In this document: piece by piece, positions 14,200-61,290 of the stretch
How positions within the stretch are numbered: position 1 is the first letter of the stretch
How the letters are laid out: each line of letters opens with the position of its first letter
Source of the DNA: Okamejei kenojei
Lineage: Eukaryota
NCBI GenBank assembly: GCA_035221665.1
Contig: CM069154.1
Coordinates: 9,114,001-9,178,000, forward strand
DNA: 64,000 nucleotides
Direction: 5' to 3'
Program-made: the position numbers and the translations under genes
Notes under the pieces: model-generated
Database searches by the model: none
What the model saw: only the letters and a program-made list of their open reading frames with translations
What the model was told of the DNA's origin: nothing

Positions 14200-15410
14200 A
14201 GATCCCTGCTATAGGTGCGGATCCAGAAGATTGGAGGAGAGCTAATATTGCTCCTTAAGGACTGTAGCAGGGATAAGCCAGATAACTGCAAGCTGGGGTG
14301 AGCCTTGTGTCAATGGTAGGGAAGTTATTGGAGAAAATGCTCAGGGATAAGATTAATTGACATAGGTAGGGTGTGTGGGTGTGGGTGTGGGTGGGGGTGT
14401 GGGTATGTCCTTCCTTTTTAGAGGTAACTAAGAATGTTGATAAACAGTGTACACCTGTCTGTCCTTCACCATGGCATTTGCCAAATTCATGTTAGGTAGA
14501 GAAAATTAGGCACATGTCATCCAAGGCAAGCTGCATAAATGATTCCACAATTGCCTTGGTTATGAGAGGCAATGGATAGTGATGGAAGGATGCTTTTCGG
14601 AGTGAAAGTTTGTGACCAGTGGTGTACCAAAGGGAAAGGTGTGATCAGCAAGGAATATTCTCCAAGGTTTCAGTCAAGGATACAAATCAGATGGAAAGCT
14701 GAGGTAAAGCACTTTGGGAAGTCAAGCTCCTCTTGAGCATGTGGAGGAAATGGCAGGAACTACAGTGTGGAAACAGGCCTTTCGGCTCAACTTGCCCACA
14801 CCGTCCAACATGTCCCATCTATACTAGTCCTACCTGCCTGCCTTTGGCCCATATCCCTCCAACCCAGTCCTATCATGGAATTGTTTAAATATTTTGAATT
14901 AAATATTTCAAAAACATTGACATTGTAACTGCTTCAACTACCTCCTCTGGCAGCTCATTCCATACACCCATCACCCTTGTGTGAAAAAGTTACACCTCAA
15001 ATTCCTATGAAATCTTTCCCCCCCTCACCTTAAACCTATGTCTTCTTGATTTCCTCTATTCTGGGCAAGAGTCTCTGTGCATCTACCCGATCTATTCCTC
15101 TCAATTTTTGGAGCATTGTCGTACCACGGGGTGTAAGAATGTAGCTTTTTGAAAATGATCACGCTCGGATGATGAAAATTGCATTTGATGTGTTTGCCTT
15201 CATCGACTGACGCATAGAATATAGAAGTTGGGACATGTTGCACCTGTACAAAACATTGGTTCAAATGCACATGGAGTCTTGCATACAATTCTGGTTGCCA
15301 GATTACAGGAAGAATATGGCAATATAAAGAGTGCAAAAGAGATTAACCAGGTTGTAGCCTGGAATAGAGGGCAGTAACTGTAAGGAGAGATTGGATAGAC
15401 TGGGTTTATT
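14200..15410. mobile_element. Cluster of degenerate CR1 fragments in both orientations
   Basis: RT remnants (gtgaccagtggtgtacca; cttgcatacaattctggttgcc) and a minus-strand CR1 3' end at about 14760-15100. Confidence 0.65.
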
Positions 15411-39196: not shown

Positions 39197-39341
39197 TTCA
39201 TCTTCTTCTTCTTTCGTGTGGCGTGCACAGCCTAAAGTTGTAGGACAACATGTTCTATTTGATCTTCTGTTTGTGCACATCGAGTTGATTGCATTAGTCG
39301 AAACAGGGCGGACCACGTGAAGGTTGCAATCTCCCACCCCC
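39197..39341 (-). mobile_element. 145-bp ribozyme-headed non-autonomous retroposon (family A, full length)
   Basis: 12-bp TSD atgcaatcctcc at 39185-39196 and 39342-39353; (GAA)n-like 3' tail; homologous to 57929-58032. Confidence 0.8.
39287..39340 (-). ncRNA. Minimal HDV/CPEB3-like self-cleaving ribozyme fold (family A, copy 1)
   Basis: Minus strand reads GGGGUGG GA GAUUGCA ACC UUCACGU GGU CCGCCCU GUUUCGA CUAA UGCAAUC. P1 is 7 bp with a G1.U wobble, P2 is 7 bp perfect, P3 is 3 bp, L3 is UUCACGU, J4/2 is CUAA. Confidence 0.8.
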
Positions 39342-42227: not shown

Positions 42228-42277
42228 GGGGTCAATTAAAGAGTGTTCACGTCGCGGCCCTGTTTCCACTAATCTTC
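42228..42277 (+). ncRNA. Minimal HDV/CPEB3-like ribozyme fold (family B)
   Basis: GGGGUC AAUUA AAGA GUG UUCACGU CGC GGCCCU GUUUCCA CUAA UCUU. P1 is 6 bp with G1.U, P2 is AAGA/UCUU, P3 is GUG/CGC; L3 and J4/2 are the same as in family A. Confidence 0.7.
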
Positions 42278-42394
42278 CCACCACCACACACAAGGAGCGC
42301 AAGACAGACACCGTTGCATGCAAATGCCGAGAAATGTGTTCAGATCTGGCTGAACAACTTCTAATCTTGTGCATGGGCTCGACAAGAGGAAGAT
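42228..42394 (+). mobile_element. 167-bp ribozyme-headed retroposon (family B) inserted in a CR1 3' fragment
   Basis: TSD ctgtccaagt at 42218-42227 and 42395-42404; purine-rich tail caagaggaagat. Confidence 0.72.
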
Positions 42395-42895: not shown

Positions 42896-42967
42896 GGGGT
42901 TGTAGCTCAGAGGACGAGTGCATCTTTGGGATGTTTGAAGTCCCAGGTTCAATCCCTGGCATCTCCA
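42896..42967 (+). pseudogene. tRNA-Ala-derived pseudogene (anticodon position reads GGG)
   Basis: 72 nt colinear with vertebrate tRNA-Ala. G3:U70 is kept and the T arm ccagg-ttcaatc-cctgg is intact, but the anticodon stem has two mismatches, the acceptor stem has one, and there is no oligo-T terminator. Confidence 0.75.
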
Positions 42968-56194: not shown

Positions 56195-57275
56195 GCAGCG
56201 TAGGTTCACCAGGTTAATTCCGGGATGGCGGGACTGCCATATGTTGATAGAATGGAGCGGCTGGGCTTGTATACTCTGGAAGATTAGAAGGACGAGAGGG
56301 GATCTTATTGAAACATACAAGATTATTAAGGGTTTGGACGCGCTAGAGGCAGGAAACATCTTCCTGAAGTTGGGGGAGTCCAGAACCATGGGCCACAGTT
56401 TAAGAATAAGTGGTAAACCATTTCGAATGGAGATGACAAAAAACGTTTTCACACAAAGGGTTGTGAATCTGTGGAATTCTCTACCTCAGAAGGCAGTGGA
56501 TGCCAATTCTCTGGATGCTTTCAAGAGAGAGTTCTCAAAGATAGCGGAGTCATGGGGATATGGGGAGAAGGCAGGAACGGGGTACTGAGTGGCAGTGCTG
56601 GCTCGAAGACCTATTATCTATTGTCTATTGCTGAAGATTGTCTTTACTCCTTTCAGTATAGGAGTAAAGAGGTTCTTCTGCAGTTGTATAGGGCTCTGGT
56701 GAGACCACATCTGGAGTATTGTGTACAGTTTTGGTCTCCTAATTTGAGGTAGGACATCCTTATGATTGAGGCAGTGCAGCGTAGGTTCACGAGATTGATG
56801 CCTGGGATGGCGGGACTGTCATATGAGGAAAGATTGAAAAGACTAGGCTTGTATTTACTGGAGTTTAGAAGGATGAGAGGATATCTTATAGAAACATATA
56901 AAATTATAAAAGGATTAGACAAGCTAGATGCAGGAAAAATGTTCCCAATGTTGGGGGAGTCCAGAACCAGGGGCCACAGTCTTAGAATAAAGGGGAAACC
57001 ATTTAAGACTGAGGTGAGAAAAAACGTTTTCACCCAGAGAGTTGAGAATTTGTGGAATTCCCTGCCACAGAGGGCAGTGGAGGCCAAGTCACTGGATGGA
57101 TTTAAGAGAGAGTTAGTTAGAGCTCTAGGGGCTAGTGGAATCAAGGGATATGGGGAGAAGGCAGGCACGGGTTATTGATAGGGGACGATCAGCCATGATC
57201 ACAAGGAATGGCGGTGTTGGTTTGAAGGGCTGAATGACCTCCTCCTGCACCTATTTTCTATGTTTCTATGTTTCT
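56195..57275 (+). mobile_element. Two tandem CR1/HER1 LINE 3' fragments
   Basis: ORFs 56241-56588 and 56762-57178 both contain RGDLIETYK-type and WNSLP motifs. Confidence 0.9.
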
Positions 57276-57928
57276 GTGTAAGACGCTCCTCAGGTTATGC
57301 TCCTCAAGTCTATGACTGTCGTAAAGGTTCAGTGGATTCACCCCAAAATTAGGATCAATATTTCTCCCTCAACCTTCACCCAAAACAGATTGTAGAAACA
57401 AGGAACTGCAGGTGCTGGTTTATACCAAAGGTAGACACAATGTGCTGGAGGAACTCAATGGGACTGCCAGCATCACTGGAGACTAAAGATGGGTGACGAT
57501 TCAGGTCAGGACTAAAACAGATTATCTGTTAATTGTCATGTTGCAGATGGAACATTCTGTGCACAGATTGGACCCCTTGCATGTTTACAAGCCTCGCTAA
57601 ATGTCTCTTAAATGCTACTATTTTGTTGTTAATCTATTGGCTTATTATTTTCACTTGTCCCGCAATGCAATGAGAAACATTGTCATAAAGTCACAGAGTG
57701 ATACAGTGTGGAAGCAGGTCCTTCGGCCCAACTTGCCAACACCGGCCAACATGTCCCAGCTACACTAGTCCCACCTGCCTGCCCTTGGTCCATATCCCTC
57801 CAAACCTGTCCCTATCCGTGTACCTGTCTGTTTCTTAAACGATGGGATAGTCCCAGCGTCAACTACCCCCTCTGGCAGCTTGTTCCACACACCCACCGCC
57901 CTTTGTGTGAAAAAGTTACCCCTCGGAT

Positions 57929-57982
57929 GGGGTGGGAGATTGCAACCTTCACGTGGTCTGCCCTGTTTCGACGAATGCAATC
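57929..57982 (+). ncRNA. Minimal HDV/CPEB3-like ribozyme fold (family A, copy 2)
   Basis: GGGGUGG GA GAUUGCA ACC UUCACGU GGU CUGCCCU GUUUCGA CGAA UGCAAUC; all helices are retained. Confidence 0.8.
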
Positions 57983-58032
57983 AACCTGGCGTGCACAATC
58001 AAATAAGATCAAATAGAACAAGTTGTCCTGCA
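57929..58032 (+). mobile_element. Ribozyme-headed retroposon, family A, 3'-truncated, inserted in a CR1 fragment
   Basis: 11-bp TSD acccctcggat at 57918-57928 and 58033-58043. Confidence 0.8.
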
Positions 58033-58562
58033 ACCCCTCGGATTTCTATTAAATCTCTTTCCTGTTCACCATGAACCTGCGTCCCCTAGTCCTCGATTCC
58101 ACCAACTCTGGGCAATAGATTCTGTGCATGGATCCTCTCATGATTTTGTACACCGTGAAATAATGCTGTACTTGCGTACAATCAAGCCATAAATACGAGG
58201 TAGTGCAAAGAGATAAATACCAGGGTGCTGAGAACGACACAAAGCACTGGAGTAACTCAGCGAGTCAGGCAGCACCTCTGGAGAACATGGATAGATGATG
58301 TTTCTGGATCAGGTCCTTCTTACGACTCTTTAGATTTGGGCTGAATGGCAATTTTCCACTCTGTGTGACTCGCTGACTCTGTGACAAGCAACAGAGGTCC
58401 CAGTTACTGATCTCTGCGCAACACCACAGGTCACAGACCCTCAGTCAGAATAACACCCCTCTTGGTCCTCTATGTACAAGCAGATTTTGAGCACAAGCTA
58501 AGTTGGAATACAATCTATCAAGGTTTTTTCTTTGTTCTCCTTTCTCCTGCATTCTTCTTCTT

Positions 58563-60022: not shown

Positions 60023-60372
60023 TCGAATTTGATTGAATGGCAGAGGGGGCTTGCCCACACCGTCCCATCTACACCCGTCCCCCTTCGCTGCATTTGGCCC
60101 ATATCTCTCCAAATCTGTCCTATCCATGTATCTGTCTATTTCTTCAAACGTTGGGATAGTCCCAGCCTCAACTGCCTCCTCCGACAGCTCGTTCCATACA
60201 CCCACCACATTTTATGTGAAAAAGTTACCTCTCAGATTCCTATTAAATCTTTTATGTGTGGCTTATTGCTGAGTCTCTGCAGTACACAGCTTGGTGGAGC
60301 TCCTGAGCCAGCAGATGAAGGATTCAAGTCCTGTAGAACTGGAGCTCCGATTCTCAGCTTGCCCTTGTGGGT

Positions 60373-61290
60373 AGACATAGAAACATAGAAAATAGGTGCA
60401 GGAGGAGGCCACTCGGCCCTTCGAGCCAGCACCACCATTCATTGTGATCATGGCTGATCGTCCGCTATCAATAACCCGTGCTTGCCTTCTCCCCATATCC
60501 CTTGATTCCACTAGCCCCTAGAGCTCTATCCAACTCTCTTTTAAATCCATCCAGTGATTTGCCTCCACTGCCCACTGTGGCAGGGAATTCCATAAATTCT
60601 CAACTCTCTGGGTAAAAAAGTTTTTTCTCACCTCAGTCTTAAATGACCTCCCCTTTATTCTAAGACTGTGGCCCCTGGTTCTGGACTCATCCAACATTGG
60701 GAACATTTTTCCTGCATCTAACTTGTCCAGTCCTTTTATAATTTTGTATGTTTCTATAAGATCCCCCCTCATCCTTCTAAACTCCAGTGAATACAAGCCT
60801 AGTCTTTTCAATCTTTCCTCATATGACAGTCCCGCCATCCCAGGGATCAATCTCGTGAACCTACGCTGCACTGCCTCAATCACAAGGATGTCCTTCCTCA
60901 AATTAGGAGACCAAAACTGTACACAAGACCCCAGATGTGGTCTCACCAGAGCCCTATACAACTGCAGAAGAACCTCTTTACTCCTATACGGAAAGGAGTA
61001 AAGACAATCTTCAGCAATAGACAATAGACAATAGACAATAGGTGCAGTAATAGGCCATTTGGCTCTTCGAGCCAGCACTGCCACTCAGTACCCCGTTCCT
61101 GCCTGTACACAATACTCCAGATGTGGTCTCACCAGAGCCCTATACAACTGCAGAAGAACCTCTTTACTCCTGTACTGTAATCCTCTTGTTATGAAGGCCA
61201 ACATTCCATTAGCTTTCTTCACTGCCTGCTGTACCTGCACGCCAACTTTCAGTGACCGGTGTACAAGGACACCCAGGTCTTACTGTACCT
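60373..61290 (-). mobile_element. CR1/HER1 LINE fragments, including an inverted copy of 56571-57275
   Basis: ORF 60518-61084 reads [10 protein letters not shown]...EAVQRRFTRLIPG...WNSLP. Confidence 0.9.

Follow-up and report, generated by a model that had tools for sequence, protein, structure and literature searches.

What is the short sequence that interrupts a repeat at positions 57929 to 58034 of the 64,000-nucleotide stretch of Okamejei kenojei DNA analyzed here (the window), and why does it begin exactly at the first nucleotide, G1, of a predicted HDV-like ribozyme? In the reading that we consider likely, it is a 3′-truncated subfamily-B copy of a SIDE of ~135 nt, which arose from an internally deleted Vingi-type LINE and multiplied by the cycle proposed below. 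SIDEs, or bipartite non-autonomous LINEs, are defined in PMC5786205 and PMC3414825; here and below, papers are cited for the portions of their text available to us. A preliminary description of this sequence had arrived at part of the same interpretation, having missed both the parent LINE and the bipartite origin of the element. The single copy is ordinary debris, and the result is the family to which it belongs.

RESULTS AND DISCUSSION

A true insertion starting at G1

The preliminary description had proposed a separate insertion, starting at G1 and flanked by a target-site duplication, and this was confirmed by direct reading of the sequence and by comparison with paralogous host repeats (Table 1). 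Two such repeats within the window, at ~60215-60260 and 14975-15030, carry the target once and uninterrupted, and the segment is therefore a true insertion whose host sequence was fully kept. Sequence comparison relates the minus-strand frame of the host fragment to the ORF2 end of another LINE (L151), and we take the fragment to be CR1. Young CR1-like 3′ fragments of opposite orientation (56611-57271 and 60375-61034 of the window), 93-95% alike over ~660 nt, enclose the insertion.

A second, full-length copy of the element (copy 1) lies on the minus strand of the window, with one additional G between its duplication and G1. Aligned with copy 1, the copy at 57929 differs in 12 of 106 columns; it lacks 29 nt at its 3′ end as well as the (GAA)n tail. 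Two differences lie in the fold, where the pair G6-C31 has become G6.U31 (57959) and the second base of J4/2 has changed (57973); the body has eight substitutions and one 2-nt indel. The earlier statement spoke of indels in the body, of which there is one and not several. The further claim that the two fold differences show what the ribozyme tolerates does not hold. CGAA in J4/2, the form found in genomic HDV, is a marker of subfamily B, the parent having CUAA, and the P1 change is a CpG transition, a product of decay that recurs in 3 of the first 100 copies listed.

TABLE 1 Coordinates, in the window, of the insertion, its parts, its host, and copy 1
Feature	Position	Strand	Basis or remark
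Host: CR1-like LINE 3′ fragment split by the insertion	57686-58140 (approximate)	-	Sequence comparison
Left target-site duplication	57918-57928	+	11 bp, the family mode (36/76)
Element, second copy, subfamily B	57929-58034	+	Starts at G1; direct sequence reading
Right target-site duplication	58033-58043	+	2 nt (AC) in common with the element end
Part from the first ~79 nt of LINE W	57929-58007	+	84-89% identity over 65-77 nt to L428, L429, L430, L434
Junction linker	58008-58022	+	Resembles a short duplication, in tandem, of the bases before it (probable origin); in neither LINE end
Remnant of the LINE's last codons	58023-58034	+	Without stop codon, 27-nt 3′ UTR, and (GAA)n tail
HDV-like fold without P4 (54 nt)	57929-57982	+	Descriptor; predicted cleavage just 5′ of 57929
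P1 (7 bp, opened by G.U)	57929-57935/57958-57964	+	Descriptor; followed by J1/2 of 2 nt
P2 (7 bp)	57938-57944/57976-57982	+	Descriptor
P3 (3 bp)	57945-57947/57955-57957	+	Descriptor
L3 (7 nt)	57948-57954	+	Descriptor
P4 stub (7 nt)	57965-57971	+	Descriptor
J4/2	57972-57975	+	Descriptor; predicted catalytic C at 57972, then N-R-A
5′ arm of the end-closing stem	57988-57997	+	3′ partner in the lost 3′ UTR
Copy 1, full-length, subfamily A, (GAA)n tail	39197-39340	-	12-bp duplication, 39342-39353/39185-39196

The element joins the two ends of a Vingi-type LINE

One LINE of the genome, L428, spans ~3.05 kb between G1 and a GAA tail, is colinear in frameshifted pieces with an EN+RT protein (P0002, residues 3-1016), and has the same fold start, 3′ UTR, and GAA tail as the short element. 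It belongs to a lineage, W, that also contains L430, L434, L435, and the internally deleted L429. The short element, which is non-autonomous and encodes no protein, consists of the first ~79 nt of W, a linker of ~13-15 nt, and the last ~41 nt of W; the latter comprise the last codons, the stop, the 27-nt UTR, and the tail. The 5′ end of a LINE is thus joined to its 3′ end with no protein in between, as in SIDEs (comparison with L428, L430, and L434), and the family has target duplications and a GAA tail like its parent, the copy at 57929 being tail-less. We are close to certain that the element derives in this two-part fashion from a Vingi-type LINE. L429 (G000:C7:~73878877) is a deleted W copy of ~890 nt that retains both ends, and in this respect it is intermediate between the LINE and the short element. 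All W copies seen are decayed, being 75-91% alike and frameshifted.

The parent was reached from a low-ranked endonuclease match, the decayed 3-kb single-ORF LINE L162, by way of its EN+RT relatives; lineage W was found when LINE 5′ ends were fetched for 40 of 151 genome matches. Three other routes were discarded. The top matches to PF14529 belong to another LINE type; a pattern that treated the body as the first 20 codons of a LINE gave one match, not a LINE, and comparison with the parent showed that this frame ends in the LINE's last codons; and negation patterns aimed at LINE ends yielded, almost without exception, short copies bearing small indels (226 matches, 30 examined; in a second set, 30/30).

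Vingi elements have a compact single ORF for an APE endonuclease and a reverse transcriptase (PMC13708176), and we call W Vingi-type by its architecture. Its reverse transcriptase matches Pfam RVT_1 (E 9e-29), and its endonuclease pieces on their own had no Pfam match. RNase H had no Pfam match in five frames of L430 or in P0002, and 3.05 kb leaves no room for it; the relatives of L162 are likewise EN+RT proteins of ~1,000 aa without RNase H. A reverse transcriptase tree, built without named Vingi or Ingi sequences, places W deep in the EN+RT group and separates it from three further LINE types (support 89/96).

Two other lineages deserve mention. Lineage Y (L190, L195, L196, L197, L208, and L444) looks young, with near-identical copies and long stop-free stretches; it carries a classic HDV fold with a 2-bp P1.1 and P4, and its last dozen bases are similar to those of W. 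Judged by these sequences, lineage Y could be the enzyme donor. In lineage V, 5′ ends with an internal deletion occur with the same flanks on several contigs (L388, L392, L395, L397, L399, L403, L411, L414, and L425), and these are probably segmental or subtelomeric duplications.

A predicted HDV-like fold without P4

The first 54 nt of the copy have the nested P1/P2/P3 topology of HDV-like ribozymes, with G1 opening a 7-bp P1. The HDV descriptor matches the window only at 57929(+) and 39340(-), and it matched nothing in 10 shuffled 64-kb strands. The Rfam model HDV-F-prausnitzii (RF02682) aligns to exactly the segment in Table 1 with 12.6 bits against a cut-off of 44 (E 4.4), an alignment that fixes the register and carries no significance; at the cut-off, Rfam gave no ribozyme match at the element. 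The catalytic C is present in 56/58 subfamily-A and 28/32 subfamily-B copies. Instead of a P4 helix there is only a 7-nt stub, which fits the minimal HDV-like subtype, in which P4 is dispensable. As read from the sequence, a P1.1 between L3 and J1/4 can have one C-G pair here and two in lineage Y, and a 2-bp hairpin, potentially formed by the P4 stub, would sequester the P1.1 G and the catalytic C. In the copy at 57929, the G6.U31 pair brings the wobbles in the 7-bp P1 to three.

The main support for the fold comes from compensatory changes across other Vingi-type lineages, not from copy-to-copy differences. Lineages X, Y, Z, and V and the metagenomic sequence L269 have 5′ ends of the same topology, in which P1, P2, and P3 differ in sequence and retain pairing, the L3 pattern and the catalytic C are kept, and the P4 regions are long, versus the stub of W. 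The strict descriptor matched 8/28 and 5/40 LINE 5′ regions; many of the misses, W copies among them, are, on inspection by eye, truncated, inverted, or decayed. An ATG straddles J4/2 and the 3′ strand of P2 in W (window 57975-57977), X, Z, and L268 (seen in L203, L191, and L268), and in lineage X this ATG shares the reading frame of the P0002 ORF start.

These comparisons also bear on whether the element could be an ordinary tRNA-headed SINE or carry an HDV-like pattern by chance. The absence of a ribozyme match at the Rfam cut-off would suit such a reading, as would folding without pseudoknots, which is no better than that of shuffles (z +1.1 to +1.7); such pseudoknot-free folding is, however, uninformative for a ribozyme. 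The head corresponds to the 5′ end of the LINE itself, its helices covary across lineages, the descriptor found nothing in 640 kb of shuffled sequence, and Rfam found no tRNA at the element, so that we give this explanation almost no weight. Elsewhere in the window, a tRNA-like match at 42896-42967 (+) (RF00005, 39.5 bits) is probably a SINE head.

Most sampled copies start at G1

The 31-nt core of the element has 5,065 exact matches in the genome, and a 24-nt body word with at most two mismatches has 19,640, against 1 for the control. The 5′ ends were examined in 97 of the first 100 exact matches listed to an internal 24-mer, a sample chosen to avoid 5′-end bias. The 5′ end lies exactly at G1 in 84/97 copies and at most 3 nt from it in 92/97; it lies later in the other 5, one of which is an internal deletion. 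After removal of two duplicated loci, 95 copies remained, 90 of them full length. Upstream of G1 in the full-length copies, information is at most 0.1 bit except at -1 (T in 52/90) and -11 (A in 46/90), and apart from these two bases the copies have no upstream sequence in common. A target duplication was found in 76/90; it adjoins G1 in 60 and measures 7-15 bp, with a mode of 11. The preliminary description had proposed that breakpoints be plotted across the family, and the result is in line with its expectation. The same G1 boundary appears as loose ends in sequencing runs of three other organisms.

The common boundary had been taken as the signature of self-cleavage. The boundary is real, but an internal promoter fits it too (PMC4035085): a promoter at G1 could set the 5′ end, with the P4-less fold weak or dead and kept as a protective or protein-binding structure. 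Pr77 of L1Tc is both promoter and ribozyme (PMC4035085), and in R2 templates the fold helps by its structure and not necessarily by its activity (PMC11331408). Lineages whose helices are unrelated in sequence retain the catalytic C, the pattern in J4/2, and a boundary at G1, which would be surprising if the fold were such a relic; the reduction of P4 to a stub is easier to reconcile with that reading, although HDV-like ribozymes without P4 show activity in vitro (10.1101/2023.06.13.544163). In a poly(A) raw-read run from a related organism, 280/817 reads continue past G1 into flanks that are unlike one another, and read starts do not accumulate there, a result that counts against activity; the library is fragmented, of unknown strand, ~6% read, and not made by a 5′-end method. 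G at -1, on the other hand, is rarer than background (6/90, p 4e-4). A cap G copied by reverse transcription has thus left no trace, and this would argue against a capped template. On balance, the promoter alternative appears improbable, and self-cleavage at G1 in source elements, as predicted from the fold model, is likely.

Self-cleavage would enter the proposed cycle as follows. A copy of the element would be transcribed within a host transcript, and the P4-less fold would cut before G1, leaving an uncapped, protected 5′ end; release from a co-transcript is the usual role of such ribozymes (PMC6765202). The 5′ UTR arm behind P2, which is complementary to the 3′ UTR, would then pair with it, so that a short single strand and the GAA tail remain. 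A Vingi endonuclease/reverse transcriptase acting in trans would nick the DNA, prime on the tail, and copy to G1, yielding the ~11-bp duplications observed. The copy at 57929, with neither 3′ arm nor tail, would be a dead end.

Variation among copies

The 95 copies comprise subfamily A (59), which includes copy 1, and subfamily B (36), which includes the copy at 57929 and is marked by CGAA (with CAAA) in J4/2 and by the 2-nt indel. It had been suggested that substitution of the helices at the neutral rate would speak against the fold. Non-CpG substitutions do fall on helices (78/2804, 2.8%) as often as on the body (122/4046, 3.0%; Fisher p 0.61), but equal rates are expected of dead copies and so say nothing for or against the fold. 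The comparison was mis-specified, and copy-to-copy substitution rates, being incapable of showing selection on the fold, were rejected as a test of it.

Variants common to many copies are mostly at unpaired positions (J1/2 position 8 and J4/2 position 45). The exception is T29C, which breaks the first P3 pair in 7/58 subfamily-A copies, in mixed haplotypes. At element positions 29, 36, and 99 (A numbering), a T beside a run of C is replaced by several bases, at levels above other non-CpG sites and in mixed haplotypes, and this could be a reverse transcriptase error hotspot or an assembly error. The segment between the P2 arms is inverted in 5 of the 100 copies listed (L068, the only one whose sequence was read, and G000:C4:24758271, C9:11913034, C12:33602026, and C12:42710293), which suggests hairpin-guided template switching or recombination.

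The missing 3′ end of the copy at 57929

Copies short at the 3′ end are rare: 4/97 are without at least 11 nt, and none of these ends at the CAAC point at which the copy at 57929 stops. When the whole genome was scanned with a pattern for copies ending there, which misses cases followed by T and hence the copy at 57929 itself, 18 matches resulted. Most of these either represent small deletions or have a tail rich in purines, retained or regained; two are tail-less, neither of them with a detectable duplication. No other tail-less copy with an adjoining duplication occurs among these 18 matches or the 4/97 3′-short copies. L370, L373, L375, L377, and L385 end at the CAAC point and are followed directly by long AGG/AAG repeats, which gives the impression of a tail added there or of a 3′ UTR replaced by a repeat expansion.

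The preliminary description had attributed the missing tail to internal priming, and we also find this the likelier cause, reverse transcription having begun 29 nt before the tail. The flanking host sequence is intact on both sides, and, as read from the sequence, the primer end could form two Watson-Crick and three G.U pairs at the break, versus 1 nt at the tail. If the family assignment is accepted, a later deletion between two AC dinucleotides could instead have removed the 29 nt and tail of a full-length insertion. The product of such an AC-AC microhomology deletion would be identical, small internal deletions by CAAC do occur (~8/18 matches), and 8/76 normal duplications start with AC. 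Its right breakpoint, however, would have to coincide precisely with the opening bases of the duplication, an agreement of break and duplication that internal priming gives automatically, and we regard the deletion as rather unlikely.

Complementarity between the two UTRs

In full-length copies of the element, positions 60-69 form a 10-nt arm complementary to the 3′ UTR, and the parent W has the same two arms 3 kb apart. For 21 loci from nine lineages, we scored how well the 40 nt from the catalytic C pair with the 32 nt that precede the tail, each locus against 500 mononucleotide shuffles. The score was reached by at most 25/500 shuffles in 17/21 loci, and at least one such locus occurs in 8/9 lineages; these windows were chosen after the complementarity had been seen and so not blind, loci within a lineage are non-independent, and the ribozymes of Y, V, and L228 are related. 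Shuffles were not beaten in lineage X (110 and 132/500), L428 (45/500), and L269 (99/500). The arms differ in sequence, the 5′ arm mostly starting 13-17 nt after the catalytic C and overlapping P2 in Z and L268. In the cross-family comparison, at least one 3′ end from another family pairs equally well or better in 9/19 loci. End pairing in Vingi-type lineages, as it appears from these sequences, is a strong lead, short of proof.

A wider proposal, that Vingi-type RNAs combine a self-cleaved HDV-like 5′ end with a closing stem, formed between the 5′ UTR a few bases behind P2 and the 3′ UTR directly before the GAA tail, in a joint structure recognized by the reverse transcriptase, is one that we put forward tentatively, as somewhat short of probable.

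An older family of ~165 nt (window ~42228-42393, +) has its own HDV-like head, a GAA tail, and a ~10-bp duplication. Its P1 apparently has 6 bp, and it was therefore missed by the descriptor; its 3′ part ends in a Vingi-like C terminus. Intact copies have a 12-bp end-closing stem (40 genomic matches scored of 1,826 candidates), and no parent LINE was found for it.

Relation to known elements

Elements of this kind are known, and this one counts as a new variety by its Vingi setting, its high-copy fold without P4, and its end-closing stem. NARTc and RIME, the internally deleted derivatives of L1Tc and Ingi with Pr77 (PMC4035085), are likewise short and non-coding, join two LINE ends behind a 5′ HDV-like fold, are dispersed with target duplications, and belong to a sister clade. 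They differ in having a 77-nt hallmark with P4, as against 54 nt without P4 here (PMC4035085), and the present element differs from them also in its vertebrate-type host, a parent without RNase H, a (GAA)n tail, and a fold whose activity is predicted only. R2 and R2/R1 SIDEs resemble it in the joining of a ribozyme to a LINE 3′ end, mobilization in trans, and precise 5′ junctions (PMC3414825), and the ribozymes of R2 SIDEs self-cleave (PMC3414825); our element is not rDNA specific, has an APE-type parent, is 135 nt long instead of 529 bp, and has ~20,000 dispersed matches. The non-autonomous derivatives of Vingi-1_EE are, like it, internal-deletion derivatives of Vingi that keep both ends (PMC5786205). 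The available text of that paper lists six ribozyme-bearing clades (R1, R2, R4, RTE, and Ingi, as well as LOA), Vingi not among them, and proposes no end pairing for the Vingi derivatives. Minimal HDV-like and theta ribozymes, which cleave in vitro without P4, also have a short J1/2 and a catalytic C first in J4/2 (10.1101/2023.06.13.544163); those occur in gut phages, often at tRNA 3′ ends, whereas the present fold heads a eukaryotic retroposon and its LINE. Our literature search found neither a Vingi ribozyme nor Vingi end pairing, either of which may be described in Repbase, patents, subscription papers, or supplements.

Implications

The results extend predicted 5′ HDV-like folds to Vingi-type LINEs, which are absent from the list in the available text of PMC5786205, and a P4-less fold present at ~20,000 sites could cut the host transcripts that surround it. 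Should the proposal of a jointly recognized structure prove true, the element would provide the first case shown, in a vertebrate-type genome, of an HDV-like ribozyme without P4 at high copy number, with its 135 nt it would be a natural template of nearly minimal size, and joint-structure recognition would explain why Vingi-type derivatives keep both ends. It offers a testable answer to the question, raised in PMC5786205, of why few LINE clades make two-ended non-autonomous derivatives. Vingi-1 serves to insert genes from an RNA template, the donor carrying both UTRs (PMC13708176), and a minimal 5′ module together with an end-pairing rule would be of direct use in that application.
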